Source: a virus (Duplodnaviria; Caudoviricetes). From it: a DNA stretch of 57,408 bases. The stretch spans positions 1 to 57,408 of the IMG/VR virus record IMGVR_UViG_3300048598_000451, one strand, 5' to 3'. Shown piece by piece: positions 1 through 32,815 of this stretch. The position numbers were made by a program, and so were the translations under genes. Numbering within the stretch: position 1 is the stretch's first letter; each line of letters starts with the position of its first letter. The notes beneath the pieces were generated by a model, which saw nothing but the letters and a program-made list of their open reading frames with translations, did not search any database and was not told where the DNA came from.

Positions 1-163
1 GAAACAGAAACAGGTGGCCACTCAAGGGGTCCTGCCCGATGACGGCTTTCACGCGTTCGGCCAGCCGGTCGAAACCGCAGCGCATGTCAGCCGCCTCGGC
101 GGCGAGCCAGATGCGCGTGCTTTGTTCACGGTCGAGCGCGCGCAAACTCGGCAGCCCAGTCAA
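1..163 (-). CDS. tnpB: IS66 accessory protein TnpB (5' part, truncated by the window edge)
   Basis: TTG start overlaps the tnpA stop (TTGA). Translation MTGLPSLRALDREQSTRIWLAAEAADMRCGFDRLAERVKAVIGQDPLSGHLFLF carries the IS66 TnpB DMRxGFDxL and GHLFLF motifs. Confidence 0.85.
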   Translation of the reverse strand, partial: MTGLPSLRALDREQSTRIWLAAEAADMRCGFDRLAERVKAVIGQDPLSGHLFLF

Positions 164-489
164 ACGCGAGGCTCCAGCACAGCCAAAAGAGCGCGGAGAT
201 GAGCAGGATCAAAGCCGGGCTCAACCAGTAGGCTTCGGCCGGCGGCCAGCCGAAGCTCAATCGCCGGACCGCGCGTGGCCTCCGGTTGAGGCGCCCTCTC
301 GGAGCTCTTCAACTGGACCTCGACAAAAGGATGAGGCCCCGCCAGGATCAAGCGCTTCCTCCAGGCGAAGAAGTGTGTTGGCGAAAGGCCACGTGCCCTG
401 CAGAATGCGGCCACACTCTGACTGCTCCGCTCTTGCTCCGCGATCAACTCCCGCCACTTTGCCCAAATCTCAGGTCCACGCATGCGCAT
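160..489 (-). CDS. tnpA: IS66 accessory protein TnpA (HTH)
   Basis: WRELIAEQERSSQSVAAFCRARGLSPTHFFAWRKRL HTH and C-terminal IELRL...VEPGFDPAHLRALLAVL, typical of IS66 TnpA. Confidence 0.85.
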   Translation of the reverse strand: MRMRGPEIWAKWRELIAEQERSSQSVAAFCRARGLSPTHFFAWRKRLILAGPHPFVEVQLKSSERAPQPEATRGPAIELRLAAGRSLLVEPGFDPAHLRALLAVLEPRV

Positions 490-670: not shown

Positions 671-1080
671 CTACCTGCACGCTGCTGGAGGCGGACATGG
701 ACCTCCAGGTTGAGACCGTCCTGCCCCGTCCCACTCGCGGGGGACGTCAAGTGGCCGCCCCCAGACCTCGCGCCGTACGGGTGGCACCTCGCCTGCCCCG
801 AATCACGCGACTGATGGCGCTTGCGATCAAGTTCCAAGATATGGTCGACCGCGGCGAGGTCCGCGACTACGCCGATCTCGCCCACCTGGGCCACGTCACG
901 CGGGCAAGATTGACACAGATCATGAACCTGCTGCTCCTCGCGCCGGACATCCAGGAGGAGATCATGGGGATGGGGCGGGCGGCCATGGAATCAACCCACG
1001 CCGAAAGACATGTTAGGGCAATCGTCAAGTTGGTTCTGTGGGACGAACAAAGGCGAGCCTGGGTCGCGACGTCCCCCTAA
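667..1080 (+). CDS. Small HTH-like protein of the kind found next to serine recombinases
   Basis: RLMALAIKFQDMVDRGEVRDYADLAHLGHVTRARLTQIMNLLLLAPDIQEEI. The GTG at 667 is coupled to the upstream stop; an alternative ATG lies at 643. Confidence 0.7.
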   Translation: MTTCTLLEADMDLQVETVLPRPTRGGRQVAAPRPRAVRVAPRLPRITRLMALAIKFQDMVDRGEVRDYADLAHLGHVTRARLTQIMNLLLLAPDIQEEIMGMGRAAMESTHAERHVRAIVKLVLWDEQRRAWVATSP

Positions 1081-4000: not shown

Positions 4001-4262
4001 ACGCGAGGAGAAGGTCATGCGGCAACTCCTTCCGCTCAAACAACCGCAATCTGAGCGCCTGGTGGAAGTTGGAGACGTTGTTCTCATCCAGGCCTTCCAG
4101 ATGAGCGCCCTTGAGTTCCGCGGCTAGTTCCTCGAAGCGAGTAACTCCGAAGAGGCCCAGCATCCATTGGTTCAGGACCAGCCGCTGGTGAAACTTCAGC
4201 GGTTTCGCTGCGGCGGCGGCCGCGCGGCGGCGGGTAGACGTGGAGGTTGTCGTTCTGGGCAT
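1077..4262 (-). CDS. res: Type III restriction enzyme Res subunit (SF2 helicase plus PD-(D/E)XK nuclease)
   Basis: Walker A NATGSGKT, Walker B LVDEGH, SAT motif, QLFGRGVRL and C-terminal FHPDFILW...VDPKG. Lies 8 nt downstream of mod. Confidence 0.9.
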   Translation of the reverse strand: MPRTTTSTSTRRRAAAAAAKPLKFHQRLVLNQWMLGLFGVTRFEELAAELKGAHLEGLDENNVSNFHQALRLRLFERKELPHDLLLAYDQNIVRHWRRITDRRNAEEKRLLRFKYFQYLTLLFTEIYLDRWFRDPDRLLADLNAQIEAFNEDKPQGDRVGEYAPEDLRKLAFWNATGSGKTLLMHVNILQYRHYLEQNGRAGELNRTILLTPNEGLSRQHLQEFEASGMPAEIFDKDGRGLFTGHSVEIIEVTKLKEEMGAKTVAIDAFEGDNLVLVDEGHRGAGGEEWMGMRNRLSESGFSFEYSATFGQAMKAANKPALTQEYAKCILVDYSYKYFYEDGYGKDYHIRNLSEEQNEEQRRVYLTAGLLAFYQQQRLYADRKTIFAPFLIEKPLWIFVGGSVNAVRTENKRAVSDVLDVLLFFDRFVRERQESVALIDRLLNGDPGLNDERGRPIFAGAFGYLIKQHATPAAHYDGILQTLFNSDSEAALHVDNLKGAEGELGIRVGENEYFGVINVGDETKLLKLCQEQGLPTQDKDFSKSLFADLNGGDSPVNLLIGSRKFSEGWSSWRVSTMGLMNIGKSEGSQIIQLFGRGVRLKGYEFCLKRSTRLSDVKAPEHVGILETLNVIGVHADYMKQFKEYLEEEGLPANEQRTQFILPVVRNLNGRKLKTVKLREGIDFKRNGPKPELGPPPEKLLKSRVVLDWYPRLQAMASVRGSGTEEVSIREENHLRPDRHLPFLDLDEVYFELQRFKAERAWFNLNLSKQGIEQLLGRHDWYTLYIPPEEMEFRSFDQVREWQEIATALLKKYADRYYKNAKSAYEQQFLELRELAEDDPNFIPEYRLLIEESAADIAEKLGELKTLIEARTIQDWNFQSLHAIGFGQHLYYPLLHCTSSAIEISPVELNEGEKDFVQDLRSFYDANKLFFAEREMYLLRNLSRGRGVGFFEAGNFHPDFILWLLVGKRQYITFVDPKGIRNLEGRSDPKIAFHKTIKELEVRFGDPLVTLASFIVANTPHVQVKWWSDGMTKEEFDACNVLFQKDDPDTYIRRLLEKVVCPA

Positions 4263-4270
4263 GCAGTTCC

Positions 4271-7200
4271 TTAAACGTCCTGCACGTCAAACATCAGGCG
4301 CGCGAACTCTTCCTCGATGAGGCGAACCTTCCACGTGTCTTCGTCCCTCTTGAGGTTCTCCAGGTTGTTATCCCCATTCACGTAGATGAGGTCGAACTCC
4401 ATGTCCTTCGTGTTGTAACCTTGCTTCTGGAAGAACTCATCAAGCTTGGCGTTTGGATTCTCCTCGACGTTGCGCCAGATCACCAGGACTTTGTCGCCGC
4501 CCTGACCGGTGCCATGGAGGACGCGGAAACCGCGAATCGTGTCGATATGCTTCACACGCAGCCCAAGCAGGTAGTTGAACGTTTCTATAAGATCTACGTT
4601 CGTCCGCTTAGTCTCGCCAACCGTGTTGGTGGCGATGCTGAGAGCGTACTTGAATGGGTCTGTGAACGCCCGAACATTTAGGAGTGACTGGCTGCCCTTA
4701 CTTTCCACGTCAAGCATGTAGCGGAGGGTGTAGTCCTCGCGGACGTCACTACTTGCATCCAACAGTGACTGCTGAGGCTGCGAGCGGCTCAAGACCAAGT
4801 TGTTCAATGCGTCTTCATAGGACTCCAGCCGAAGTATCTTGATGATGCGGGGGCTGCGACCAGCTTCTTCCGCGTTCGCAGGCCGTACTGGCTTGCCTTC
4901 ACTCCACTCAGACGCGAAGACCACTTTCTTGATTCGAGGTACGATCACGGTCTCAAAATGCTCTCCCCCCTCAATCAAGATAAACCTTCGCTGACCTCCG
5001 TCTTCTCGGTTCAGGTTAATGACGGCATGACCTGTCGTACCGGAACCAGCAAAATAGTCCAAGATCACAGACTCAGCGTCAGCGTTGGCGGCTCGTAAGC
5101 AGTCGGCGACCAGATTCACTGCTTTTGGAAAGTCGAAGGGCTTGTCCCCGAACAAGCTCTTCAGCTGCAGTGCACCGTAGTTGGCAGAAGCGTAGTCGTT
5201 GTTGTCCCACCATGTGGATGGCGCCGACTCCTCATCGATTCGCGTTTTAAAGTCGATGCTGACATTCCCCTCCGCGTCCCTGCGAGCACGGTATTCTTCC
5301 GGCTCGGAGATGACTCTGTCATATCCCCGATGCCACCGTTTTTCAACCTCGCCGTTCTCGCCCTTGCTGATTGGGAAGACCGCTACTTCATTCGGTTTGA
5401 GGGCTTCTAGTATTTCGTATTCCCCCCGATCGTCGGACCACTCTAGCCTTGGAACGCGAAGTGAGTTGTCGTCGGCCACATAGATCGGATAGTAGAGCTT
5501 CGGACGATCAGATCGCTTGTCGCCCGTCCCAGTTCTAATGAAGCTCATCCACGAATAGCGGCCCTTCTCGTCCTGCTTGGGATATCGAGCCATCCGCTTT
5601 TCGGTCAGTTCCAGGCTTCCGGGTTTCGAACCGGCTGTTGTGCCATAAAACAGCGCGTACTCGTGCGTCGGCGAAAACGTGCCTTTGGCCTTCCGGCTCT
5701 GGGGATTGGATCTGACGACAGCAATGCCTATCTGCTTAGGAAAGATCTGACTGATCACCTGTCGGGCTTCAGAGACCTCCTCGTCGTCAATCGCAACGCA
5801 AAGCACACCAACGTCCGTAAGGAGATGCGATGCTGGGACGAGCCGGTTCTCCATGAGGCTCATCCACGACGAATGTTTGTAGTCGTTCTTGTACAGGATT
5901 GCCGATGCATTCGTGTTGTAGGGTGGATCAATGTACACAACGTCGATCTGGGAGCGATAACTCGCTTGAAGATGGCGAAGGCCTTGAAAGTTCTCGCTGT
6001 GGACGAGCAGGCCGTCGATGTCTTCGGTCAGATTCGCGAATCTTCCGAGAAGACGCGCGGTGAACTCCGGCGAGAAATAACGGGTGTCCAGGACCAACGT
6101 CGGATGCGCGGTTAGAAAGGCGGGTGACAGCGGGGCGCTATAACCGGGCTGGGTCAAGTCAGCCTTGATCTGATCAATTGCATAAAGGGTGACCCACTCC
6201 TCTCGCTGGGCATCATTCGTCGCGATCTCGGCGTAAAACTCCTCGGGTATCACACCGAGTCTGATGCAATATCGCGTCTCAACCACGAACTTCGTCTTCA
6301 GCCAGAGTTTCTTTTGAAAGTTCTCCAACTGAGCAACAAAGTCGATGATCTTGTGAGCAATACGACGCAGCACCTTGATGCCAGAGAGGTACTGCTCAAC
6401 TCGCGGCACCGAAGCGCTCTCAATGTCGTCGAGATGCATGACCTCGTTTTTAATGAAGAAGTCGAGCTCGCGGCGAAGGAAGGTGCCTGCATCCTTATGG
6501 ATGAAGTAGTCGAAGGTATTTCGGGCAGTGTAATCCTTCAGGTGCTTTACAAGAACTGTGCGGTTTGGATCTGCCTCGGAGGGACTTAGAGCGGCTAACG
6601 CGAACAGCCAAGCAGAAGCTGCGGGGGCTTCGAGAATGGTCTTCGTCGCTTCTGCATTCAGGGCATCTTGCCGACGCTTCTCGGTATCCGGTCGAAGCTC
6701 GAACCGGATCACCAACTCACCATTCTCTTCCGTGATCGCGTCTTCGCCGGCTAGGATGAACCGCCGGTCATTTCCATTGGTGGACTTGTTATTGTCCTTG
6801 TCGATGTCGGCGGCTGCCAGCCGAAAGTGGACTCGCCTTCCATCCGCGAGCCTGAACGTGTAGTCGCGCAGGTACTCACTGCTTTTGATGTAGTACTGAT
6901 CGTGGTTTGCCCAGTAGAGCTTGACCTCTTCGCCTTCGTAAGGTATGGCGTAGACGCCTTCCTTGTATCGCCGAAGAGACAGGAAATCCCCCTCGTTGTA
7001 GTACCGGCGGAAGAAGTTGAACAGATCAGAGAAGACCTGGTTCTCGAGGGCGGATACGTCGATGGCGGTCGACAGTTTCTCGCGAAACTCCTTCACCTTC
7101 GGCGACAACTCGGGATCGACGCCCGCGTCCTTCAACTGCTGGATGACCTTGTCGAGCTCAGCTCTGATGTGGGCCGCATCGCTCGACTTGTACTGTAGGA

Positions 7201-7360
7201 ACGCCTCCTTGATTTGCGGGAGGAGATCGTTGTCCAGAAAGCGCTCGATCTCCGAGCGCTTCGAATTCATGATCCGGTAGATGCCGAAGTCGAGATCGGC
7301 GCTGTCAAGCTGGAACAGTTCCCGGAGTAAGGTCTTTAGTTTCGTTTGGCTGTCGGCCAT
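4271..7360 (-). CDS. mod: Type III R-M Mod subunit (beta-class m6A DNA methyltransferase)
   Basis: IDPPYN (motif IV) precedes DYFAGSGTT (motif I). N-terminal [10 protein letters not shown] and [11 protein letters not shown]. Start placed at the ATG of MADSQ. Confidence 0.9.
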
Positions 7361-7380
7361 GTTCACATTCCCAAATGAGG

Positions 7381-10266
7381 CTACTCCACCTTCCAACGGA
7401 TGGTGAAGATTGTCTCGCGCTGCGTCTTCTGCGTCATGCGCGTTTCCAACTTCGTGATCAGCCGGTCGCGCTTGTCCTTGACCTCGTCCTCGAGGTCGAA
7501 AATCCGCTGGCGTTGCCGCCGCTGTTCCTTCTCTGCCTCGCGGATTTCATTTTGAACACGGAGATGCTCCTCCGTCGTGGTCGTGAGGCGGGCCGCGCGG
7601 TTCAATGCCTTGATTCGCGCTTTGGTGTCGGCCAATTCGCGCTCCACGGCGATGATCTGGTCATCCGCCCATTTCTCCAGGCGCTCTCGCTCCTCCTGGA
7701 AGTGCCTGTTGTTCGTTTCAAGAGATCGGCTGATCGTCGCCGCGGTGTGGCGTTCGGCCTCCCGGCTGAGCTGCGGCGGGACGTCGGCGGTGGCCGCGTC
7801 GGGAAAGACAACGGCGTCACAATGGAACAGCTTCTCGCAGGTCTCCTGATCGAGCGGCCGACCGTCATCGGTCAATCCGCTGAACAGGAGGTACTCTTCG
7901 CGATCGAACGAATCAATGGCGAGGCGATTGAGCACAAGGATGCCGGACTTGCCCTTGAGGTTCTCGACGACCCGTATTCGCACGGGATGGCCGGTAATCT
8001 GGAATTTCAGGGTGGCTTCTGGCGTCGCGCAACTCTTTGCGGCGTCGATGGCATGTTCACCGAGAGGGTGCGAGATTCGGTAGAGAAACTCTCCGTCGAC
8101 GTTCTGGTGCGTCTTCGAGATCAGATGGTAGCGGCCCGGTTTCACGTCCGGTCGCGGCGTATGGCGTAACTCGAACGCCAAGGTCGCGTCGTCGAAGGTG
8201 GCAAGGTCGCGAAGGATGAACTTCGACAGTTGCCAGAACATGCGGCCGACCCAATCGAGGCGCTGGCGGGTTTCATCGAGCTGGACGCGGAGGCGGTCGT
8301 GAACATCCTCGTCAAAGTTCTCCAGGAGCTTCCGTCTGGTATCGACGAGACGGCTTTGGATCGCCTCTTCCATTTCGGCCTGCAACTTCAGGAACGCCGC
8401 TTCGATTTGCTCGGGGGTGCGGCAGGTCTGATAGATGGCGAAGACGCGCTTTTCAAAGTCAACGCCGGATTCGAGGGTGCCCAGGATGTCGTCACTGGCG
8501 CCGAAGACGCCGGAAAATAGGTTGAACTTCTCGTTGAGGAGCTGAAAGACGCGCTTGTCGGCTTCATTCCGCTCATTTAGGAAATTGATGACAACGACAT
8601 CATGCTTCTGGCCGTAGCGATGGCAGCGCCCAATCCGCTGCTCGATTCGCTGAGGGTTCCAGGGGAGGTCGTAGTTGATGACGAGCGAGCAGAATTGGAG
8701 GTTGATTCCCTCCGCGGCGGATTCGGTGGCGATGAGAATGTCTGCATGGTCCTGGAAGTGCTCTATCAGGGCCAGACGCTTGTCGGCCAGCTTGGATCCG
8801 CTGAGCCGCCCCAGCGGTGAGTTCACGCGCTCCCATTCCTGGTAGATGCGGTCGACGTCAGGGCCGGTATTCGTACCGTTGAACAGAACGACTCTCCCCG
8901 CGTAGCCGTTGGCTTCCAGAAAGTTGCGCAGGTACTCTTGTGTGCGGCGAGACTCCGTAAAGACAACGGCCTTGCGGAGCGCCCCAATCTTCTCCATCTC
9001 ATCGAACCCGATCTGCAATGCCGTGAGGAGAGCGCGGGTCTTCGCGTCGATTTGTATAGAGCGGGCCCAGTGCACGAAGCGGTCGAGCTCGGCGATTTCG
9101 GAGTCCAGTTTCTTCAGATCGACCGGCGCAGGCGATGGGGGTAGATCGCCGTCCGGACTCTCGCCTCCGTTTGCAGGCTCGTCCAACAGCTCAGAGTTCA
9201 GTTCATCTTCTTCGATCAGCTTCTCTGCCAAACCTTCGCCGTCAGACAAAACCGCATCACTATGGGAGTGCGCCTTGAGGACCAATAGGCGTTGACGGAT
9301 CATTTCGAGGGTGCCTGCCACGGCCTGAGAACTGGAGGACAAGAGCTTGCGCAATATCATCGTCGTCAGTTCTCGCTGGCGATGCGGGATGGAGTAGGTG
9401 TCATCCCTGCGCAGAAAAGCAGAGACTGCTTCGTAGAGTTGCTGTTCGGAATCAGCAGGGGTGAACGGGCGCGTAATCGGCCGGCGCTCCGTGTATTTCA
9501 CGTATTCCAGGACCTGGCTTCGCAGCGTCCGGTAGCAGAAGGAACGAAGACGGTCCTTCAAGCCGTCTAGGTCTCCGTCCTTCGAACAGTATTGCGTTCG
9601 GAAGGCAGCCAGGTCACCGAACAGATGCTCGTCGATCAGGGTCGAGAGGCCGTAGAGTTCGAGCAACGAGTTTTGCAGCGGTGTGGCGGTCAGCAGCAAC
9701 TTTCGGCGGTCCGCGATGGCCGTGCGGATGGCTTGGCCCATCTTGTTGCTCGTGCGGTATGCGCCCCGGAGCTTATGGGCCTCATCGATTACGACGAGGT
9801 CCCACGGTACGAGTTGCACCTCGCCTGCCATGCGGCTGGCGAAGTTCATAGAGACGATAACGACCCCATGTGCGGCAAAGGGCGAAGCGCTCCCGTCACG
9901 GAGTGCATCCCGGTATGATGCCGAATCGAGGATGACGCTGGGCAAGTGGAATTTATCCGAGAGTTCCATGCTCCACTGTTTGCGGAGAGATGCGGGGCAG
10001 ATGACGAGCAACTTCCGGCGACGCTCGGCCCAACACTGGCATAGCACCAGGCCCGCCTCGATGGTCTTGCCGAGGCCGACTTCATCGGCCAGCAGCACGC
10101 CTTTCGAGAGAGGCGACCGGAACGCGAAGAGCGCGGCTTCAATTTGGTATGGGTTCAGATCGACGGCGGCATCGAATAGGGAAACCGACAGCTTCCCCAC
10201 GCCGTCCGTTCCGGACCGGCGGGTCAACTCGTGGCCGAAGTATTTGGCGTGGTAGCTCGTCGACAC
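7381..10266 (-). CDS. SNF2-family (RapA/DrmD-like) helicase with C-terminal coiled coil
   Basis: LADEVGLGKT, IDEAH, LTATP, EGINLQ and NPQRIEQRIGRCHRYGQ. GAGG SD before a GTG start. Confidence 0.9.
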   Translation of the reverse strand: MSTSYHAKYFGHELTRRSGTDGVGKLSVSLFDAAVDLNPYQIEAALFAFRSPLSKGVLLADEVGLGKTIEAGLVLCQCWAERRRKLLVICPASLRKQWSMELSDKFHLPSVILDSASYRDALRDGSASPFAAHGVVIVSMNFASRMAGEVQLVPWDLVVIDEAHKLRGAYRTSNKMGQAIRTAIADRRKLLLTATPLQNSLLELYGLSTLIDEHLFGDLAAFRTQYCSKDGDLDGLKDRLRSFCYRTLRSQVLEYVKYTERRPITRPFTPADSEQQLYEAVSAFLRRDDTYSIPHRQRELTTMILRKLLSSSSQAVAGTLEMIRQRLLVLKAHSHSDAVLSDGEGLAEKLIEEDELNSELLDEPANGGESPDGDLPPSPAPVDLKKLDSEIAELDRFVHWARSIQIDAKTRALLTALQIGFDEMEKIGALRKAVVFTESRRTQEYLRNFLEANGYAGRVVLFNGTNTGPDVDRIYQEWERVNSPLGRLSGSKLADKRLALIEHFQDHADILIATESAAEGINLQFCSLVINYDLPWNPQRIEQRIGRCHRYGQKHDVVVINFLNERNEADKRVFQLLNEKFNLFSGVFGASDDILGTLESGVDFEKRVFAIYQTCRTPEQIEAAFLKLQAEMEEAIQSRLVDTRRKLLENFDEDVHDRLRVQLDETRQRLDWVGRMFWQLSKFILRDLATFDDATLAFELRHTPRPDVKPGRYHLISKTHQNVDGEFLYRISHPLGEHAIDAAKSCATPEATLKFQITGHPVRIRVVENLKGKSGILVLNRLAIDSFDREEYLLFSGLTDDGRPLDQETCEKLFHCDAVVFPDAATADVPPQLSREAERHTAATISRSLETNNRHFQEERERLEKWADDQIIAVERELADTKARIKALNRAARLTTTTEEHLRVQNEIREAEKEQRRQRQRIFDLEDEVKDKRDRLITKLETRMTQKTQRETIFTIRWKVE

Positions 10267-10448
10267 CTATCCTCTTCAGGCCGGCGCGGCCATCGCGACC
10301 GTCCGATCTCCTTTCCCGTAATGACCATTGTCGATCATTGTGGCCAACACCGTCTTCTTGCTCGTTAGGCAGGGATCGTGCACAACTGATCTATAGCCGA
10401 GCCCCCGTTCGCCCGGGTGCCTAGTCCGCCGAGCCATATCCGGAATGC

Positions 10449-11792
10449 TCACACCCACCTGGGAGCAGCCTTCACGGTGGCGTGGGTGAATGGCGGGTCG
10501 AATTTATCCACGTATCTGAAGCCTGGCTTGTCGGGATCAGCAGCGCCAAAACTAACTGCACGGCGCGCGACGTCCGCCTCGGTCTTGAAGTCGAAACGCG
10601 GCTCGTACCGATTGATTGCTTTGACAGCCTCACAGGTCTTCGAGTCGAACCTCCGCGCGCGCAGCGCATTGCGCGCAGCCTCAACGAGTTTGTCTTTCAA
10701 TCCGGGCACCAGGCCTGAACCGCCAGTCACGACAATATTGAGGGGCTTGGCCACGGGTAACCAGCGGTCGTCCGGAATGCCGTGGACATATGTCTCTACG
10801 TGATCGCAGATTTGCTTCATCCATGCGCTTACGAACGGCAGGTTGCACCAGGAACTGCCAGAGACCTTCTGTGCCTCAGCTTCCCTGTATCCCATCAGTC
10901 GATTCTGCGCCCGGTAGTGCTTCAGGAGGTCTTCAGTCAGCTGGTTTCCTGCAATCGGAAAAGCGGGTGCAGGCCGAACATGATAAAAGGTAGGCCTACC
11001 AGTTTCCACGTTGGTTGTTCGGAGCATATAGCCAACATCGGTCGATCCGGCACCCACATCGACAACCAGAAGTTTCCCAAGCCCACCGATTCCTCTTTGT
11101 CTGGGCAGTTGCATAATGCGCAAATACGGTATGCCTGCCGCGCCTGATTCAACGATGAACCGCCATGTCGGACCGTCGTTCGACAAACAGAACCCAGTCC
11201 GATTGGCGCTTTCCAGGGTGACGCTCGAGAGCTTTGTGCCCGCTACTGCCTCTCTTGCCGCGTGAACCGTGCGTTTCCACTTGTCGATTGCGTAGGCCTT
11301 CCCTGGATGAGGTAGTGCACTCTCCGCACATTGTGCGACGATCGCCACGGCGACCTGGGTCGCCTCGCAAAAGTTCTGGGCGGCAACGGCGGCCTTCTTG
11401 CCATCTTCTGCTAGCCAGTTCGGGAAGGAGAATCCTAACTCGGCCTCCTCAAAGGAAACGCCCGAGACTTTTGCATGCAGTAAGCGTTTGGCTTCGGCGA
11501 CAAGGCAGGCAAGGGCGAACGCGACCGCCTCTCCCAAGGAAGTGCCCGTGTCCAATCTGTTCTCGCTGCTCCAAAACGGAGCCGCCAAGCTGTTCTTGAT
11601 CAAGTCTCCCTTCAGGCCTCGGATGATCTCGTCCTCTTTGCTGTGGTCACCGATACCAAAGGCGATTCTGCCATCGGCCGAGAGGATGTCGGAACTGAAA
11701 AGCGGTGCGTCGATGTACCGCTGCGTTGAGCTTATACAGAGCTTCGAGGAGTGAGTTCCCCAATCGATGCCAATGAACGCGTTATTAGACAT
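10449..11792 (-). CDS. Hsp70/actin-fold ATPase (nucleotide-binding domain only)
   Basis: Phosphate-1 IGIDWGTHSS, connect-1 ESGAAG, phosphate-2 VVDVGAGSTD, adenosine VVTGGSGLVPGL and connect-2 AVSFGAA. At 447 aa it ends just after connect-2, so there is no DnaK substrate-binding domain. Confidence 0.8.
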   Translation of the reverse strand: MSNNAFIGIDWGTHSSKLCISSTQRYIDAPLFSSDILSADGRIAFGIGDHSKEDEIIRGLKGDLIKNSLAAPFWSSENRLDTGTSLGEAVAFALACLVAEAKRLLHAKVSGVSFEEAELGFSFPNWLAEDGKKAAVAAQNFCEATQVAVAIVAQCAESALPHPGKAYAIDKWKRTVHAAREAVAGTKLSSVTLESANRTGFCLSNDGPTWRFIVESGAAGIPYLRIMQLPRQRGIGGLGKLLVVDVGAGSTDVGYMLRTTNVETGRPTFYHVRPAPAFPIAGNQLTEDLLKHYRAQNRLMGYREAEAQKVSGSSWCNLPFVSAWMKQICDHVETYVHGIPDDRWLPVAKPLNIVVTGGSGLVPGLKDKLVEAARNALRARRFDSKTCEAVKAINRYEPRFDFKTEADVARRAVSFGAADPDKPGFRYVDKFDPPFTHATVKAAPRWV

Positions 11793-13041
11793 TCGAGTTC
11801 TCCGTTGCTGCGCGAACTACTGCCTTAAATATGACCGACGATTTATTCGTGGTGACTCTTTGAACGCCTGGACGAACAACCCGAACCACGTCAGAGACGC
11901 CGGCTCCGTGTTCAAACTCGTGAATGGCTGGATGATATTGGGCGGTCTGGTCAGCCTCACCGATCAACTTGAGGCCGAAGAGGCGGCTCAGCGTGGTGGT
12001 CACCTCCTCGGCCAGCTCCCCACCCGGGGCCAGGCGCGCCGCCACATCCCAAGCTTTCATCATCAATCGGGCTAACTCCGTCGTTTCGACATCCTCGTGC
12101 AATCCAGGAGCGAATTCAAGAGCGGTGTCTTCGCCGACAGTCGATTCCGCATACTGGGAAAGCAGTTGCACACACGCTCGATCCAAGGAATCGGGTTTCG
12201 CGAGGTGCTTGGTCACGACTTCTCCAAATTCCCGTTGTTTTGCCGGAAAGTTGGCCATGGCGCGGAGGAGCGCTTGCACGTCGCTGAGACGAATCGAAAC
12301 AAGAGCACGATCTAACTCCGTTGATAATGCGATCCAAAGAGCGTCGGCCGCACCAAGTTTTTCCTCAGGCGGCATGGACAAGGCGTCCGGATCGAAGGAG
12401 TGCCGGTTCACAGCTCTGGTGAGCAAATCTGATCCCAAGGTCAACGAGCCGACCGTAGGATAGAGCTTGATCAATTCAAAAGAGCTCTGGACCAGATCCG
12501 TCAGCATCTGCTTTGGAGGCGCTGACTTGCCCATGCTCCATGTGGCCGCTTCCGCACGATGGTCCAGGAGACTAGCAGCGACTGAGAGGAACGCGCCGGC
12601 TGTCGCTTCCGTTGGGACCGCGCGCGGTATGCCGGTCTGCCAGAGCTTCGCAAATGAAAGAAGGCCTCTCGCCCACCTCCTGACATTCGGGCGCCCCTGC
12701 GTCTGCATGAGCGACCGGGCTGCGGTCAGCACGGCGAGGGCGTCAATAGACCGTTCCGGGACCGCAAGCAGACGCGCGAATTTCCAGCAGTCATCTAACT
12801 GAAGTGCGCTGCTAATGTGCTGCGATGTCAGAAGTTCGACGGGCGGCCTTGTGCCAACGGCTAAACAGAGGCGAAGCTGCACCAGAGGTTCTAGCATCGT
12901 CATCGAAGTAAGGAGGGCAGCTCGCTCCTCTTTCTTCTTCACGGGCCTGATTGGCGAACGTGGTGTACCCAACCTCGATTTCACCTCTATCGGTTCCATA
13001 ACTGTCTTTGAAAGCACCGAGTCTAACATTTCATCGGCCAC
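11785..13041 (-). CDS. Helical protein with a C-terminal GrpE-like beta domain
   Basis: C-terminus GLKLIGEADQTAQYHPAIHEF...VVRVVRPGVQR...VIFKAVVR matches the GrpE F/YDPxxHE...V..V...GY....RPA.V pattern. AGGAGG SD before GTG 13041. Overlaps the Hsp70-like gene by 8 nt. Confidence 0.6.
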   Translation of the reverse strand: MADEMLDSVLSKTVMEPIEVKSRLGTPRSPIRPVKKKEERAALLTSMTMLEPLVQLRLCLAVGTRPPVELLTSQHISSALQLDDCWKFARLLAVPERSIDALAVLTAARSLMQTQGRPNVRRWARGLLSFAKLWQTGIPRAVPTEATAGAFLSVAASLLDHRAEAATWSMGKSAPPKQMLTDLVQSSFELIKLYPTVGSLTLGSDLLTRAVNRHSFDPDALSMPPEEKLGAADALWIALSTELDRALVSIRLSDVQALLRAMANFPAKQREFGEVVTKHLAKPDSLDRACVQLLSQYAESTVGEDTALEFAPGLHEDVETTELARLMMKAWDVAARLAPGGELAEEVTTTLSRLFGLKLIGEADQTAQYHPAIHEFEHGAGVSDVVRVVRPGVQRVTTNKSSVIFKAVVRAATENSNV

Positions 13042-13082
13042 GTGAGCCTCCTGTTCCAGGTTCTTGCGCACCAGACACGCGT

Positions 13083-13874
13083 CTACAAATCTTCCAACCG
13101 CAGTGCGTCATACGCGTCCTCCAACCAGCCTGGGGTTGCCTCGTCCAAGGCCGCCCAATAGGCGTCGCCACACAGCAGTTGGTACGTCTCAAGGATGCGT
13201 TCGAGTCTCAGCGTTGAGACGAGGGGCTCATCGTCCTGGAGAAGGAGGACCAGCCGCTGCATCCGTTCCTGGAGGGGGACGACGATACGAGGGATCTCTT
13301 CCCAAATCTGGTCCTGCATCTCTTCTGCAGGAGACACGAGGCATGGAATCCGCAGCCCTGCGAATCGGTGTAGTACCAGCAGTGGCATCCGTTCCGGCTC
13401 GATCACAATGATTCCCCATTGGAGGGCGAAGCGCCTCGCCTCTTCAGACAGGGGGTATCCGCTAAATAGGAGGCGGTACAACGGGCGCTTTCTAATCGTT
13501 CGATTTGCGGCAGCCAAGAAGTCCAGACCCTTCTGATTGAAGACGAGCATCTCATTCTTGCCCAGTTGTGAGCTGAGGTATTTCATCTCAACGTGAATTA
13601 TGAGGTCCGGCATCGCGATGACGGCGTCACTTTCGTGGGCGAAGCCGGAGGCACTTTGTTGGCCGCAGAGAGTTCTCGATCCAGGAACTTCGGTTAGGCG
13701 CAGCCGCTTCGAATCGCAATAGCGGCAGAAGAGCTTCTCCAGGAACCTGCCGCGTTCCGGCCCTGAAAGCGCAAATGGTTCCCAGCATTGCACGATGGCG
13801 AAGCAGTCAAGCGCGAGATCATACAGGAACCTTGGGAAATGCACCTCGGGACGCCTGAGGAAAAAAGGACTCAT
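13083..13874 (-). CDS. PD-(D/E)XK restriction-endonuclease-fold protein (Mrr_cat-like)
   Basis: RGRFLEKLF helix, SGFAHESDAV...HVEMKY catalytic motif and LSEEARRFALQWGIIVI tail. Confidence 0.6.
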   Translation of the reverse strand: MSPFFLRRPEVHFPRFLYDLALDCFAIVQCWEPFALSGPERGRFLEKLFCRYCDSKRLRLTEVPGSRTLCGQQSASGFAHESDAVIAMPDLIIHVEMKYLSSQLGKNEMLVFNQKGLDFLAAANRTIRKRPLYRLLFSGYPLSEEARRFALQWGIIVIEPERMPLLVLHRFAGLRIPCLVSPAEEMQDQIWEEIPRIVVPLQERMQRLVLLLQDDEPLVSTLRLERILETYQLLCGDAYWAALDEATPGWLEDAYDALRLEDL

Positions 13875-13880
13875 GTTCCC

Positions 13881-15044
13881 TCATTTCTTCACGACCCGAA
13901 CCAGTCCGATGTTGCGGTTTCCCACCCGCAGTGGACGATCATATTGGCCGCGCTGTCTCTGAATCTCAAGAGTGAGGTCGAACTCGTCGGATCCGGTGTA
14001 GTGTTCTTCCATAAGGCGGTCGAACACAGACTCCTGACACCGGTTATCGAAGCAAAACACCGCGCGCAACTGCCAGGCCAGCGCGTAGGTTCCCTTCGTC
14101 AGCCTCTGCATTTTGATGTACGAGTTGTAGAGCTTCGGCAGAAACCCATCCGCGGTTCTGTTAAGGCCGCTGTCATAAAGAAGGGCAGCTACACCCCGCT
14201 CGTCCGACGTGGTTTGAATTGTTGCGGTTCGAAAGACCAGACGGCCGTCATACTCCGGGTGATCGCTGGTACTCTGCCAGAGCTTCCACTCCTGGCCCAG
14301 GGACCACAGGGTGCGGTGCGTCCGGTAGTCAAATGTTAACCCGTCGCCGCGCAGGAGCGCAGGAAGTACGTAGTCATTGATCTTGAGGAGAAATTTCTTG
14401 GCGAACTCCGCCGGCTCTTCGGACATGGCGCTAAGACTGACCTCGTCAAGAAGTGATCGGACCCCCTCGACGATTCCCGATCGTTCGTCCGAGGTGAGTG
14501 GCCGCGCCATCCGGCGGTCTAGGGCCGCGATGACGCCATCGACGTCAAATTGCTTTCTTGATACGTCTTCGACTAGCGCGCTGGCGGTGGCGTATTTCGG
14601 TGAAACGTGGTCTTTGAGTGACGTGACGACGGGCGCGAACAGATGGTTTTTGTTGATCGCTCGCACGAAGGCCCGCAGGTAAGGATGCGTCGCGAACATG
14701 AGTTTGAAGAGGGCGTCATATGCTTCGGCCCGCTGCTCTTTTGGGAGGGTGACGAGTTTCCGTCCAGCATCCGTAATGGCGACCTCCCGATCCCGCAGCT
14801 GCTCGAACGAACGGCGGCTCTTTGGAGCCGGACCGACTTCTAGGAGTCCAAGTCGGCCTAGTTCCTGCGCATTGTAGGCCGCAGTTGACCACAGAAGATC
14901 GCCGCTCACCTTACGTTTCCGCTGTACACAGAAATGCTGCCGGAGCAGCTCAAGAGTGATCGCCGTGTCCTTGGCAGCGACTCGCAGCGTAAAGAACAGA
15001 TCGCTCAGACTGGTACGCGGGATAGAGTCGGTCTCTGCCGGCAT
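13881..15044 (-). CDS. Uncharacterised 387-aa protein with a probable N-terminal winged helix
   Basis: ATG 7 nt after the ATPase stop. ELGRLGLLE...VAITDAGRKLV looks like a wHTH wing. No catalytic motif recognised. Confidence 0.6.
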   Translation of the reverse strand: MPAETDSIPRTSLSDLFFTLRVAAKDTAITLELLRQHFCVQRKRKVSGDLLWSTAAYNAQELGRLGLLEVGPAPKSRRSFEQLRDREVAITDAGRKLVTLPKEQRAEAYDALFKLMFATHPYLRAFVRAINKNHLFAPVVTSLKDHVSPKYATASALVEDVSRKQFDVDGVIAALDRRMARPLTSDERSGIVEGVRSLLDEVSLSAMSEEPAEFAKKFLLKINDYVLPALLRGDGLTFDYRTHRTLWSLGQEWKLWQSTSDHPEYDGRLVFRTATIQTTSDERGVAALLYDSGLNRTADGFLPKLYNSYIKMQRLTKGTYALAWQLRAVFCFDNRCQESVFDRLMEEHYTGSDEFDLTLEIQRQRGQYDRPLRVGNRNIGLVRVVKK

Positions 15045-15051
15045 GGCTGAC

Positions 15052-16371
15052 CTATCGTTCCGGGTTGCTGAAGTCATCGTCTTCATCCGCCGGCGGGACA
15101 CCGGAGACGCTGTCGGCGTCGTCCTCAAGCAATGGGGTAACAAATGCCAAGTCGATCTTGCGCCGCTGGTTGACGATCGCGTTGTCCAGAATTGCCCCAA
15201 GTTTCTCCAGGAATCGCCGCGGGTTGCCATTCGCAGCGAGACGCACGGCCTCGATAATGTCGGCGTCGAACGGGTGTAAGGAGTTGGTGGGCTTGACCCC
15301 CGATGGCCGGTTGTCAGCGAGGTACCTCTCGGCGAGGATCTTGGCTTCTTGTTTTGTCGTCAGGCCCTGAAGGTCCACGATCCGTGTTGCATTGATGAGC
15401 TTCTGCGGGTCCAAGGACGGCAGATGCTCGATGTTGTCCCACCAGCCCTCAATCGCCTGCAATGCGTGTACGTGCATTTGAAAAACGAACGATGCCATGC
15501 CATCGGTTGGCGAGGTCTGGCACATAGATTCGCGAAGAATTTTCAGATCTCTTTCCTGATTCCGGGCGAAGCGAGCGAAATTCTCGATTTGGTCGACGAA
15601 GTACACAACGTAGACCACCCCAGCGATCAGAAGAAACGCATTGAAGATGTGAACGAAGTTGAATCCCTGCGCCGCCTTAATTCGCGGGCCGATTTCATGA
15701 CGGATGAAATGGATCAGAGCCTCCGTGTCATCGTGGCAGAGCTTTTGAATGAACTCTTCGATCTTCGGATGCGTGAGCTGAACATTCAAACCCCGGTACC
15801 TGCGGAGCTCTTTCTGAAGTGCCCGAAGGATCGCTTCACTCTCGTAGCCCTCTTCGGCGTCGATCCGACTTGAGATTCGTTCACGGAGTGCGAGATGCAC
15901 ATTGGCGCTGCTGTTCGAGCTTTCCAAGATGAACGCGACTGCGTCGAGGAGGGCGGCCGGAAAGGACTTGACGTCCTTGGCCTGATCAAAAGTGCAGTAG
16001 CCGGCGAGGAAAGGATTCTCGGCGGCCTCGGCCTGTCCAAAACCGAGCGCCAGTAATTTCCCCAAGCCAAAGTCGGCGTTGATGCGGATGGATTCCTCCG
16101 CCATGAGAACGCTCTTCCCGTACCCTTTGCCTGCTTTGTCCCCGGTATGGGAAGACCATACGGCACCCACGACTTGCTTGTTATTCTCCTTACTCATCGG
16201 AACCAGGAAGAACTTCTGGTAGAACTCTTCGAATTGGTCTCCGTAGATCTCAGGGACGTAGGTCCCCCTTCGATCCACGCTGTAGATCTCGCTGGTTCTA
16301 AACGGGTTCTCAACGAGTTGAAACACGTCGGCCATGAGGTCCTTACCGTCCGTCTTCAATTTGAGTGGCAT
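15052..16371 (-). CDS. P-loop AAA+ ATPase (ORC/CDC6- or ExeA-like architecture)
   Basis: N-terminal ENPF, Walker A AGKGYGKS, Walker B VVYFVDQIE and lid HPF...ANGNPRRFL. Acidic tail. AAGGAG SD. Confidence 0.8.
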   Translation of the reverse strand: MPLKLKTDGKDLMADVFQLVENPFRTSEIYSVDRRGTYVPEIYGDQFEEFYQKFFLVPMSKENNKQVVGAVWSSHTGDKAGKGYGKSVLMAEESIRINADFGLGKLLALGFGQAEAAENPFLAGYCTFDQAKDVKSFPAALLDAVAFILESSNSSANVHLALRERISSRIDAEEGYESEAILRALQKELRRYRGLNVQLTHPKIEEFIQKLCHDDTEALIHFIRHEIGPRIKAAQGFNFVHIFNAFLLIAGVVYVVYFVDQIENFARFARNQERDLKILRESMCQTSPTDGMASFVFQMHVHALQAIEGWWDNIEHLPSLDPQKLINATRIVDLQGLTTKQEAKILAERYLADNRPSGVKPTNSLHPFDADIIEAVRLAANGNPRRFLEKLGAILDNAIVNQRRKIDLAFVTPLLEDDADSVSGVPPADEDDDFSNPER

Positions 16372-16386
16372 CGCTTCTCCTTTCGG

Positions 16387-16443
16387 TGACAGTACATCAC
16401 GAATGATGAATTCTGATTATGATGCATTCGCGTTGTACTGTCA
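16387..16443. repeat. 19-bp imperfect inverted repeat (17/19) with a 19-bp spacer; candidate operator
   Basis: TGACAGTACATCACGAATG (16387-16405) pairs with CATTCGCGTTGTACTGTCA (16425-16443). Confidence 0.85.
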
Positions 16444-16444
16444 A
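16416..16444 (-). promoter_or_regulatory. Near-consensus sigma70 promoter of the five-gene operon
   Basis: Minus strand reads TTGACA (16444-16439), 17-nt spacer, CATAAT (16421-16416), about 45 nt upstream of the ATPase start. Confidence 0.75.
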
Positions 16445-16696
16445 CGGGAAAGTTGTCGTTGCGCGTGCGCAGCTCTTGTGGCAGGAACCGACCGAGCACC
16501 GGCGCTGTCCACAGCTCGATGTCGAGCCGCTCGCCCTACAGGCCGCGGGGCTCGATTGGCTCCATGGGAGAGGTATACGTAAATAGCTTAGATGCAATGG
16601 ACTAGGAGAATTCTTGGTCTCCACATGCTTTCCACAGGCACCGGTCGGCAAGAACTCGATTTGCCCGGTTTTCATTGAGATCCGTTGTTGAATCTT

Positions 16697-16711
16697 GTTC
16701 GTGTTTTGTTC
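16697..16711 (+). promoter_or_regulatory. LexA (SOS) box, GTTC-N7-GTTC type
   Basis: GTTC-gtgtttt-GTTC. It overlaps a putative -35 TTGTTC (16695-16700), 18 nt from an extended -10 TGcTACCCT (16716-16724), upstream of 16807. This motif is the established LexA box of Alphaproteobacteria and Acidobacterium. Confidence 0.7.
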
Positions 16712-16806
16712 GCCATGCTACCCTTTGATGTTGTACTCCAGGTCACGACCTTCCCCCACCGGGCCTGCTGATACAGCCACAACGTCCCTGGGAGGTGGCC
16801 CCCGCG

Positions 16807-17991
16807 ATGGTTCGCTTCAACCCGAAGAGCTTCGCGCAGCCGGATCTGTTGAAGACTATTCAACCCGGCAACCTGATCCGCCTCCTGGAACCCTGCCGTG
16901 GGTTTCTGGAGGATCGCGGCTTGTCTTTGCCGCGTGAGGACAGTCCCGACATTGACTACGAGAAGCTGTCGGGCATCCTGGCGCAACCCGACGAGTTCAT
17001 GGACTCCCATGTTGTCGAGGGGCTGCACGTGATCGGCAACCTCGGAACAGACGGGAACTTCGACCAACTCCTCGACATCTCCCGCCGCAACTTCATCGAG
17101 GTGGACATGGAGGCCACCGCCGCCGACCTGGCGGCCCGGATCTGGATCGAGGCGCCGCAGGCACTGCTGCTGAAAGAGCGTGAGGCGGGATCTCATCGGC
17201 GCCGGAAGTTCGAGAGCTTCCGCGCGCGCGACCCGGAGGCGGTGGTCCCACTCGAGCAACTGCCGATCCAGTTCGACGAACTGGAGGCCGACCTCGAGGG
17301 TTGGTTCATGGCCAAGAAGCGCGGCATCGGCTGCCGCGTGATCCGAATCGACATCGATGGCGAGATCCGCTTTATGGTCCAACACGGGCAACTCTGCAAG
17401 CGGGAGCCCAGCCGTAAGGGCGCGCAGTCCACCTGCACGTTCTTCCGGCCGGAGAAGACGGACTTGGTCATTTACGACGCGGTGAACAACGAGCTGCGGA
17501 TCAGCACGAGCACGATCGGGGAGTTGCGGCTCTACCGGGAGAAGTTCGGCAAGCACGTGTTTGGCGATGCGGAGAAGTTCGTCTACACCCAGAAGTACAC
17601 CCTGGCGCCCTTGAGGACGGATGGGATCGCGTCCCTTCAATGCCGCGACGTCGGCGGGGTGGAGTGGGTCCGCCTCACCGAGCTTGAGTGTCTGTGGCCG
17701 AGTGCATTCGACTACACGGAGAAGCTTAAGGCATGCGACCTGTTCCGGGCGATGGAACTGCGGCAAAGGAAGCTTGATGCGGACGCCGAGTTGCTCCACG
17801 CGCGGTTCGCAGTGAAGCTCGCCGGCGAACCGAGCCCCAGACCGGTGTTGGTCCAGCCGCCGAATATCGCGGAGTATGGCCGCGGCGAGGAGGCCGCCAT
17901 AATCGAGCAATGGCTGCGCGCCCGCGGTTTCGTGATTGTGGGATCGGTGGCAGACGATGAGAACACTCAGTCATTTATGGCGGTCGCTTGA
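16807..17991 (+). CDS. Uncharacterised ~394-aa protein, first gene of the LexA-box unit
   Basis: Long ORF with typical codon usage and GGAGG upstream; alternative GTG at 16795. No motif recognised. Confidence 0.75.
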   Translation: MVRFNPKSFAQPDLLKTIQPGNLIRLLEPCRGFLEDRGLSLPREDSPDIDYEKLSGILAQPDEFMDSHVVEGLHVIGNLGTDGNFDQLLDISRRNFIEVDMEATAADLAARIWIEAPQALLLKEREAGSHRRRKFESFRARDPEAVVPLEQLPIQFDELEADLEGWFMAKKRGIGCRVIRIDIDGEIRFMVQHGQLCKREPSRKGAQSTCTFFRPEKTDLVIYDAVNNELRISTSTIGELRLYREKFGKHVFGDAEKFVYTQKYTLAPLRTDGIASLQCRDVGGVEWVRLTELECLWPSAFDYTEKLKACDLFRAMELRQRKLDADAELLHARFAVKLAGEPSPRPVLVQPPNIAEYGRGEEAAIIEQWLRARGFVIVGSVADDENTQSFMAVA

Positions 17992-18817
17992 GGCGATACC
18001 TGGCCTGCTCGCGATCCCCGCGTTTTGGGAGGCGCACTGCGGGCCCGACATCGACTTAGTTCGGCCGCACCTTCGGGTGACGGACACGGAAGGATCGCTG
18101 TACCCATGTCCGAAGCCGCACGTCGGCTACTGCCCGCGGAAGATCATCGACTACGGCAACGGCGAGTTCGCCGCGATCTGCCGCGACCCATATGAGATCT
18201 GCGAGAGGGTCACCCTGACGCAACGGGACGTCCTCCTTCAACAGCTGGATATCGCCAGCCTCGCTCGCGTGCTCGCCGGGCCGCTTGGGGTTCGATGGCA
18301 GGAGCCCGTACCGAGGGGCGATGGAACGTGGGGCATCGGCGTGTCGGAGCGGCGCGAGAGTCGGTCTCATCCCGTTTTCCTTGTGGTGTTACCTGAGACT
18401 GCGCGATTCGTCGCCGTTGTTCAACGGCTGTTGCTCAACATGGCCGGCCCGTTCGTTTTGGTCGCTCCAACCAAACGCCACCGAACCCTGGAGGTCCAGG
18501 AGATGATGCAGGCGCGCGGTGTCGGCTTCCTGCCGCTCGAAGAGCACCTATTACTCGACGATGCCGGTCGGTTGACGTCTGTCAATCCCCAAGAAACCGG
18601 CGGCGAGGCTCCGGTCACGCCGAAAGAAGACCGCCGGCGCGTGGTGAAGGAATTCTCTGCCCGCAATCACTGCAAGGTGAAGGACATCCAGGATGCCGCC
18701 GGCGTGGATGAGGCCGACTACTACAAGTGGCTGCGCGGCAAGTTGCCGGATCACTACGCTGCGAGCCGAAACATAGAAAAGATCCTGCATCACGGCCTGC
18801 CCAAACGGTCCCGTTAG
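17957..18817 (+). CDS. Putative transcriptional regulator (Cys-rich N-terminal part, C-terminal HTH)
   Basis: CPKPHVGYCP...ICRDPYEIC is a possible metal site. C-terminal KVKDIQDAAGVDEADYYKWLRG is HTH-like. Overlaps the upstream gene. Confidence 0.65.
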   Translation: MRTLSHLWRSLEAIPGLLAIPAFWEAHCGPDIDLVRPHLRVTDTEGSLYPCPKPHVGYCPRKIIDYGNGEFAAICRDPYEICERVTLTQRDVLLQQLDIASLARVLAGPLGVRWQEPVPRGDGTWGIGVSERRESRSHPVFLVVLPETARFVAVVQRLLLNMAGPFVLVAPTKRHRTLEVQEMMQARGVGFLPLEEHLLLDDAGRLTSVNPQETGGEAPVTPKEDRRRVVKEFSARNHCKVKDIQDAAGVDEADYYKWLRGKLPDHYAASRNIEKILHHGLPKRSR

Positions 18818-18818
18818 C

Positions 18819-18869
18819 TTTACCCAGTTTCTCCCCAGTTTCCCAGGATTGATTTACCCAGCCACCCAG
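18819..18869 (+). repeat. Five CCCAG direct repeats upstream of the early operon
   Basis: CCCAG at 18823, 18834, 18842, 18857 and 18865; TTTACCCAG occurs twice. Confidence 0.7.
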
Positions 18870-18921
18870 GCCGGATTATGAGCCTGTACCAACCGCGTAG
18901 ATGGCGGGAGGGACGGGCAAA

Positions 18922-19137
18922 ATGAGCGATCAAAACCTGGAAACACTACTTGACGAAAAGGAACTCTCGCGGCTGTTGCGAGTCTCGATTGGGACGCTCC
19001 GATTCTGGCGCACGATCGAACGCGGCCCACGCTATCGCAAGGTCGGACAGCTTGTGCGCTATGCGCCGTCCGACGTCCACGAGTGGCTGAACCGTCGTCC
19101 CTCCGGCGGCGAGACCGAGGCGGAGGTGGCGCGATGA
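18922..19137 (+). CDS. AlpA/excisionase-like HTH protein
   Basis: LLDEKELSRLLRVSIGTLRFWR...GPRYRKVGQLVRY...VHEWL. Confidence 0.85.
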   Translation: MSDQNLETLLDEKELSRLLRVSIGTLRFWRTIERGPRYRKVGQLVRYAPSDVHEWLNRRPSGGETEAEVAR

Positions 19138-32799: not shown

Positions 32800-32815
32800 T
32801 CCCGTGGCTCCCTCG

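Follow-up and report, generated by a model that had tools for sequence, protein, structure and literature searches.

A five-gene operon in a defense-type island of a (pro)phage contig, probably composed of a putative ATPase–nuclease cassette and a distant relative of PDC-M61

The IMG/VR virus record IMGVR_UViG_3300048598_000451 (57,408 bases, estimated 69% complete) is called here the window. At positions 10449–16371, on the minus strand, five co-oriented genes, named A to E in the order in which they would be transcribed, form an operon that an initial annotation had taken for a single new defense system. The operon is probably a composite, in which two independently moving cassettes, A-B-C and D-E, are joined under one promoter within a defense island. 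In other genomes D-E and A-B-C have separate distributions and, for that reason, the five genes do not make up a single conserved system. As judged by profile comparisons, the D-E pair is homologous to PDC-M61A/B, a candidate system, of which it is a compact and divergent sister. The elements of the operon are the following (lengths in amino acids, aa).

16416–16444, minus strand: promoter-like site TTGACA-17-CATAAT, with 11 of 12 consensus matches, 45 nt ahead of the A start
15052–16371, minus strand: A, AAA+ ATPase of the ORC/Cdc6–TnsC clade, 439 aa, with Walker A GKGYGKS and Walker B-like YFVDQIE
13881–15044, minus strand: B, partner of A with no detectable family, 387 aa, with 81 homolog clusters
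13083–13874, minus strand: C, probable Mrr-like PD-(D/E)xK nuclease, 263 aa, with a fold model match and D90...E96-x-K98
11785–13071, minus strand: D, predicted HEAT/ARM-like solenoid with a C-terminal GrpE-like domain, 428 aa, with alternative starts at 13029 and 12999
10449–11792, minus strand: E, stand-alone ASKHA ATPase, divergent and Hsp70-NBD-like (NBD, nucleotide-binding domain), 447 aa, with invariant nucleotide motifs and without a substrate-binding domain

An alignment of 25 homologs of E retrieves 102 loci, 22 in genomes and 80 in metagenomes. When all open reading frames (ORFs) of these loci are compared by BLASTP with eight proteins of the window (A to E and the three encoded further downstream, the SNF2 helicase F and the Mod and Res subunits G and H), E is found in 100 loci, D in 35, and the SNF2 helicase in 6, with homologs of A, B, C, Mod, and Res in none of the 102. 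With the BLAST-confirmed D proteins as a profile, a D homolog is recognized directly upstream of E in 65 of 68 loci, these being the loci where E is full-length and preceded by a gene on the same strand. Of the three misses, one is a gene of 372 aa at a distance of 318 nt; the others are short ORFs of 146 and 113 aa, one of which is cut by the contig end. Among non-redundant loci, a co-oriented neighbor within 120 nt occurs upstream in 21 of 46 and downstream in 11 of 47. In at least seven loci the genes on both sides of D-E lie on the opposite strand, so that D-E is a self-contained unit. We did not observe homologs of E in 72,556 plasmid records or in 50,697 phage records, and the search of viral contigs with the E alignment gave no match. 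On one Terriglobia contig the D-E locus is present twice, about 130 kb apart (L007 and L008), with D split in two ORFs and E truncated to 295 aa, which suggests a duplicated and decaying copy.

The A-B-C cassette, for its part, occurs without D-E. A tblastn search of the 72,556 plasmid records with A and C matches solely the Azospirillum brasilense plasmid NZ_CP032346.1 (L128), where A-B-C is contiguous (identities of 50.6%, 38.6%, and 45.9%, respectively) and where D, E, F, G, and H have no match better than E-value 0.3. The lists of homologs of A (the best 120 of 161 rows) and of B (81 rows) have 31 longest-contig values in common, an indirect fingerprint limited to those best 120 rows of A, and one pair of A and B homologs carries the adjacent NCBI locus tags VGN95_02410 and VGN95_02415. 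The E list (119 rows) has zero such values in common with the same A list or with the B list. A was sought without success in five genomes known to carry D-E, and neither single-protein nor alignment queries with A match any viral contig; 401 Acidobacteriota genomes, and 251 from the family to which G003 belongs, likewise yielded no A, a blank that, for want of a positive control genome, shows little. The single five-gene system proposed at first is not supported by these distributions, and the complete set was not found together beyond two near-identical assemblies, X1 and X2, described below.

In the Azospirillum plasmid, A-B-C is followed by a gene of 925 aa (L128 15429–18206, plus strand) that matches UvrD_C_2 and UvrD-helicase, weakly also AAA_16, and that has weak PADLOC matches to NERD+UvrD and GajB. 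This UvrD-like helicase may be a fourth component of the cassette there. An IS66 transposase lies about 2 kb upstream of the cassette (L128 8361–9968, minus strand).

PDC-M61 is a candidate system of PADLOC-DB v2 with two genes, M61A and M61B. The PADLOC models match the pair of the window weakly, D to PDC-M61A (PDLC04730) with E-value 0.0025 over the C-terminal 66 residues only, and E to PDC-M61B (PDLC04731) with 4.8e-4. The weakest matches of the E profile are proteins of 528–618 aa, here called family A10. On three viral contigs, the relatives of A10 score as genuine PDC-M61B (1e-83 to 4e-90), each preceded by a genuine PDC-M61A (2e-38, 3.5e-35, and 4e-10). The profile of the C-terminal domain of D matches the three M61A proteins (2.7e-10, 7.8e-10, and 4.7e-5), with the YDPxxH motif kept, and the full D-family profile matches two of the three (1.5e-13 and 2e-9). 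The E-family profile matches all three M61B proteins (1.4e-10 to 3.3e-6). These matches to three PDC-M61 pairs are the basis on which D-E is placed as a sister of PDC-M61.

In both D-E and PDC-M61, the partner gene comes first and the ATPase second, co-oriented, with tight or overlapping junctions (−14, +12, and −20 nt between M61A and M61B in L129–L131). Both have a C-terminal domain with G..G..V.YDP..HE...RP.V in the partner, a homologous ATPase, and carriage on viral contigs. They differ in length, D having 428 aa and E 447 aa against 470–487 aa for M61A and 538–593 aa for M61B, and the E family forms a small clade of its own. The three pairs span 4284–7377 of L129, 4570–7776 of L130, and 4560–7605 of L131, and two of the IMG/VR records are estimated 100% complete. 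Since the pairs occur on IMG/VR viral records, the candidate system is phage- or prophage-borne. In the literature searched, PDC-M61 was found in one preprint only, which reports that in Pseudomonas aeruginosa it is negatively associated, statistically, with the number of prophages; no experiment on PDC-M61 was found. The same search gave no defense system described as an ATPase, Hsp70-like or actin-like, paired with a GrpE-like protein. The initial statement that no named system has such a composition needs amendment, D-E being a distant relative of PADLOC's candidate PDC-M61A/B.

Protein E belongs by its motifs to the Hsp70/actin (ASKHA) superfamily. The phosphate-1 (GIDWGTHSSK), connect (ESGAAG), phosphate-2 (VVDVGAGSTD), and adenosine (TGGSG) motifs are invariant in the family and span residues 8–360 of the 447 aa. 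An exhaustive profile search of 1.84 billion proteins retrieves 131 representatives at E-value ≤1e-3, with no fused forms, and the longest strong member does not exceed 469 aa. At these lengths no substrate-binding domain is present in E. The Pfam model of HSP70 (PF00012) matches 0 of 25 family members at E-value ≤1, and E itself has no match at ≤0.01. The connect and phosphate-2 motifs of E align with those of DnaK, and hhalign comparison with five DnaK NBDs gives a probability of 20% (E-value 1.1e-3). With A10, the E family aligns over 382 columns (99.4%, E-value 6.5e-22), and the PDB matches of A10 are in turn Hsp70 NBDs (1.4e-11), the best 60 rows being all Hsp70. Given this link, transitive via A10, the most fitting description of E is that of a divergent Hsp70-NBD-like ATPase devoid of a substrate-binding domain, in keeping with the stand-alone Hsp70-fold ATPase of the initial annotation. 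A10 has no match in 301 Acidobacteriota genomes, and the query P0412 has none among the plasmids. A housekeeping chaperone was considered and rejected, the E family being tiny and patchy and the five host genomes checked having each their own DnaK and GrpE.

In its predicted model, D is a HEAT/ARM-like solenoid ending in a GrpE-like domain, with two helices (328–346 and 351–365) followed by seven strands at 367–421. Whole-model fold searches return helical repeats only; the solenoid fills the matches, which bear on it and not on the C-terminal domain. D has no match to the Pfam GrpE model PF01025 at E-value ≤0.01, and the same model detects GrpE in five out of five host genomes. Compared by hhalign with six GrpE domains from genomes that carry D-E, the C-terminal domain of D gives P 3.2e-4 and a probability of 39% (P 4.9e-4 and 32% once three PDC-M61A C-termini are added), against P 0.18–0.71 in five controls (reversed GrpE, DnaK NBD, MreB, and the families of A and B). 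The common core is G-x2-(F/Y)-D-P-x2-H-E, and a relaxed alignment is collinear across both helices up to the R-P-x2-V strand, over 84–105 columns. The C-terminal domain of D thus appears GrpE-like on weak but specific evidence, and it is in this sense that the GrpE domain first assigned to D is retained. No DNA-binding domain is recognized in D. A predicted complex of E with residues 320–428 of D scores 0.35, against 0.00 for the best of three controls (contacts agreeing at ≥61% between runs and partner pLDDT ≥70), and is not used as evidence. Of 80 solved complexes, 58 attain the pass mark of this prediction, as do 2 of 110 mismatched pairs; at ≤0.60 there are only 7 of the solved complexes, together with both of the passing mismatches.

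GrpE is the nucleotide-exchange factor of Hsp70, and the DnaK–GrpE couple is a parallel to consider. Both couples place an ASKHA ATPase beside a protein with two helices, a small beta domain, and (F/Y)DPxxHE...RPxxV toward the C-terminus. They differ in that E has no substrate-binding domain and no PF00012 match, and in that D lacks, by alignment, the long N-terminal helix region of GrpE and has a HEAT-like solenoid instead. Another parallel is CnuD of the Type III CoCoNuT systems (PMC11090510), in which an Hsp70-like NBD and substrate-binding domain are combined with HEAT-like repeats. CnuD and D-E have in common the Hsp70-like ATPase, the HEAT-like repeats, and a restriction or defense setting. 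In CnuD, the substrate-binding domain is kept, the Walker A-like motifs are degenerate, and there is a tie to McrBC-type GTPases; no GrpE-like part is mentioned for it (0 occurrences of "GrpE" in the text searched). In E, the motifs are invariant, and neither McrB nor McrC is present here. The "repurposed Hsp70/GrpE pair" of the initial annotation survives, in a weaker form and attached to an existing candidate, PDC-M61.

None of the proteins A to E matches a Pfam, NCBIfam, or PHROG family, so that they stay unassigned as at first stated, and searches of PDB sequences with A, B, D, and E give no significant match. A is, as had been proposed, an AAA+ ATPase; it belongs to the ORC/Cdc6–TnsC clade, has both Walker A and Walker B motifs, and its homologs form at least 161 clusters. 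It differs from ORC/Cdc6, TnsC, and MuB-type AAA+ proteins in having no sequence-family match at all and in having a partner, B, that lacks a detectable family. The wHTH assignment first given to B was not confirmed; B has neither a Pfam nor a PDB sequence match, and its nearest named Atlas cluster is DpdG (score 0.80, beneath the lead level). C, which has no Pfam match, is probably an Mrr-like PD-(D/E)xK nuclease, the activity first proposed. Its Atlas model (pLDDT 0.59) compares with Mrr_cat clusters at TM 0.40–0.51, and the Azospirillum homolog (46% identity, one homolog) retains D90, E96, and K98. A-B-C looks like a new ATPase–nuclease module, unnamed in Pfam, NCBIfam, PHROGs, and PADLOC v2.

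The ORFs and their common strand agree with the initial annotation. A and B are separated by 7 nt, B and C by 6 nt, and D overlaps E by 8 nt, all as first given; the gap between C and D, given as about 41 nt, was not reproduced exactly. With the GTG at 13071 as start, it measures 11 nt, and with the ATG at 13029 or 12999, 53 or 83 nt. The alignment of D homologs favors the start at 12999, most homologs beginning near residue 25 of the window's D. The strong promoter that had been noted corresponds to the single predicted site ahead of A. Promoter-like sites number 3 in the scanned 10.5 kb (2.6 expected) and terminator-like sites 12 (10.1 expected), both at chance, and the site at 16444–16416 stands out by its quality and position alone, not by site count.

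Two sequencing runs contain the operon. In X1, a contig of 9,926 bases covers 10213–16445 and 16618–19000, with 145 differences over 6,233 bases; in X2, from another study, overlapping contigs tile 9891–16447. Because it is contiguous in X1 and tiled in X2, the operon is no assembly artifact. X1 and X2 are strains 96–99% identical, near-identical and not independent lineages. In their contigs, the 172–199 nt just upstream of the −35 hexamer are swapped for 178–209 unrelated letters (16445–16647), and the upstream boundary of the operon is therefore a variable junction. A minus-strand ORF of 92 aa (16397–16675) lies at this junction. No RNA sample is listed as holding the locus; a further run, X3, may be RNA.

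The operon sits in a low-GC defense-type island of the (pro)phage contig, a setting that the initial annotation had surmised. The GC fraction is 0.54–0.60 across 1001–17000 and 0.60–0.67 across 17001–57000, which bears out the impression of AT-rich DNA relative to the phage genes. Directly downstream of E are the SNF2 helicase and the Type III pair already noted, with these Pfam and PADLOC matches:

7381–10266, minus strand: F, SNF2 helicase, DrmD-like (Pfam SNF2-rel_dom and Helicase_C; PADLOC DrmD, 1e-192)
4271–7396, minus strand: G, long Type III-like DNA methyltransferase (Mod), 1041 aa (PADLOC MTase_III, 1e-230; Pfam N6_N4_Mtase)
1077–4262, minus strand: H, long Type III-like restriction subunit (Res), 1061 aa (PADLOC REase_III, 9e-242; Pfam ResIII)

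F reaches 643.8 bits with the NCBIfam model NF038318 (DrmD_b), under its cut-off of 950, and has a secondary match to DrmA (PDLC02572, E-value 2.7e-46). In the first 17 kb (1–17 kb), no gene has DrmA, DrmB, or DrmC as its leading match, and the DISARM set, in which DrmD would be joined by DrmA, DrmB, and a methylase, is not recognized here. Within 1077–10266, the junctions of the SNF2-Mod-Res trio are a 16-nt overlap and an 8-nt gap, and the three genes may constitute a separate system.

Several D-E loci in other genomes have defense-type genes next to them, as seen in a PADLOC scan of hand-chosen neighbors. In L096, HmaA-HmaB-HmaC are directly upstream of D-E; L089, whose proteins were outside that scan, has the same cluster order (SNF2, c80, c7, then D-E). 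In these two loci (2–9658 of L089 and 2–11266 of L096), the co-oriented D-E pair follows the Hma genes after 81 or 55 nt, and a five-gene variant of Hma is possible. As with the DrmD-like F for DISARM, the likeness to Hma concerns neighbors of D-E and not the five genes themselves. In L025 (E 68% identical to that of the window), a PDC-M55C/HEC-05-like ATPase is upstream and a DrmD-like SNF2 helicase downstream; in L085, a Type IIG enzyme and an HKD-SNF2 helicase are upstream; in L017, a Type IIG enzyme and an MzaA-like gene are nearby. A systematic scan took in, to the left and right of D-E, the two closest genes with at least 150 aa, 118 in all from 45 non-redundant loci. It gives, among defense families, mad2 four times, Hma, SNF2, methylases, and AIPR twice each, and REase-ARP once. 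The last, a restriction-fold nuclease, is 219 nt upstream of D-E in L002. A reading of "REase-ARP" as "actin-related protein" was rejected, since PMC9503650 has a section on ARG/rhodanese-phosphatase systems. Its section 3.8 deals with the REases of those systems, from which we infer that the Pfam name derives.

A number of observations weigh against the composite and the Hsp70/GrpE-like reading of its second half. The spacing (7, 6, 11–83, and −8 nt) and the single promoter fit a functional coupling of all five genes in this lineage, and the five-gene order is kept in the X1 and X2 assemblies, near-identical strains though they are. The context of A-B-C comes from one sequenced plasmid and indirect fingerprints. 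The GrpE likeness of D is weak (hhalign probability 32%–39%, no PF01025 match, and a domain compared by alignment alone). For E, the weak Pfam matches of 25 family members go to Actin (16), MreB (10), and FtsA (7), with HSP70 at 0, and hhalign gives 92% with a two-sequence MreB alignment against 20% with the five DnaK NBDs. The neighbors of D-E are mixed, with, of the 118 genes, three integrases, three of impB/ImuB type, and two each of ParA-like, ArdC, and SSB; ImuB/DnaE2 and single housekeeping genes occur there too, and all of these counts are without a background comparison.

Three alternatives to the composite were weighed. According to the first, which is unlikely, the eight co-oriented genes from A to H make up a single large system, with A-B-C or D-E or both as accessories of the SNF2 helicase and the Type III-like restriction–modification genes. 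The common strand, the common low-GC island, and the lack of a convincing terminator or second promoter between E and F are consistent with it, as are the SNF2 helicases beside D-E in the window, in L025, L085, L089/L096, and the L017 group, and the helicase that follows A-B-C in Azospirillum. Yet these adjoining SNF2 and methylase systems are of different families (DrmD-like, HmaABC, HKD-SNF2 with Type IIG) and are absent from most D-E loci, Mod and Res have no homolog in any of the 102, and E and F are separated by 182 nt when the junctions within units are of 6–16 nt.

The second alternative takes D-E as non-immune, a cytomotive or maintenance module, actin-like and belonging to mobile elements, in which D would be the adaptor; we regard it as quite improbable. 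The weak family matches to Actin, MreB, and FtsA, extended by PilM and Alp7A_C, the hhalign value for MreB, and the integrase, ParA-like, ArdC, and SSB neighbors are what it would lead one to expect. It is at odds with the absence of E homologs from the plasmid and phage records, with the lack of a recognized DNA-binding domain in D, and with the full-length homology of E to the Hsp70-like PDC-M61B family. In parM-parR, the ATPase gene comes first, and the partner-first order of D-E is the reverse.

The least probable alternative is that the five genes are one obligate defense system, with the Hsp70/GrpE-like pair sensing infection or licensing an AAA+-gated nuclease. The very tight spacing behind one promoter-like site, the order kept in X1 and X2, and the presence in L002 of another restriction-fold nuclease upstream of D-E speak for it; against it are A, B, and C in 0 of 102 D-E loci, A-B-C without D-E in Azospirillum, no contig fingerprint common to the E list and the A (best 120 of 161) or B list, and a conservation that comes from strains 96–99% identical. 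Licensing of the nuclease by the pair, as at first suggested, finds no support in the results.

For the composite operon, a working scheme can be drawn for each cassette. AAA+-plus-nuclease restriction modules such as McrBC are the working analogy for A-B-C. A and B would recognize foreign DNA, or load onto it, and would drive or license the Mrr-like nuclease C, which would cut, the whole being an NTP-driven nuclease module. In D-E, the C-terminal domain of D may bind E and set its nucleotide state, with the solenoid of D binding a partner or a trigger. No effector domain is recognized in D-E; its target might be a protein of the host or of the phage, or the pair might feed into an adjoining system. 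With separate distributions, cooperation between the two cassettes is not required, although the single promoter and the tight junctions would allow it.

A broader and rather doubtful idea is that the PDC-M61 superfamily, D-E included, is a chaperone-derived immune switch, in which a GrpE-like domain tethered to a HEAT sensor would gate an Hsp70 NBD without substrate-binding domain and in which different lineages would plug in different effectors, A-B-C here and Hma, Type IIG, or SNF2 elsewhere. If so, Hsp70/GrpE would be a third housekeeping machine recruited to bacterial immunity.

Should the pair be immune, a chaperone core controlled by nucleotide exchange would be reused as a switch. The D-E pair links a very rare ATPase family to the candidate PDC-M61 and offers for it a mechanistic reading, that of an Hsp70-NBD-like ATPase with a GrpE-like partner. 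Two uncharacterized cassettes have now boundaries, relatives, and testable residues, and their juxtaposition is a warning that a tight operon need not equal a single system.

The remainder of the window is mostly phage. Phage genes span about 20–57 kb and, from about 20 to 40 kb, PHROGs matches include phage replication, terminase, portal, and ParB-methylase genes. A tRNA gene search of the window shows none present. The recombinase initially placed next to the operon was not confirmed, the ORF at 16795–17991 being without a Pfam or PHROG match. At the left end of the window, an ORF of 109 aa (160–489, minus strand) resembles by eye what we take to be a transposase helper of an insertion sequence family. 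On the plus strand, at 32762–34321 and 35158–36519, are two paralogous fusions of a ParB-like nuclease and a DNA methyltransferase (phrog_498, E-values 1e-113 and 4.5e-162).

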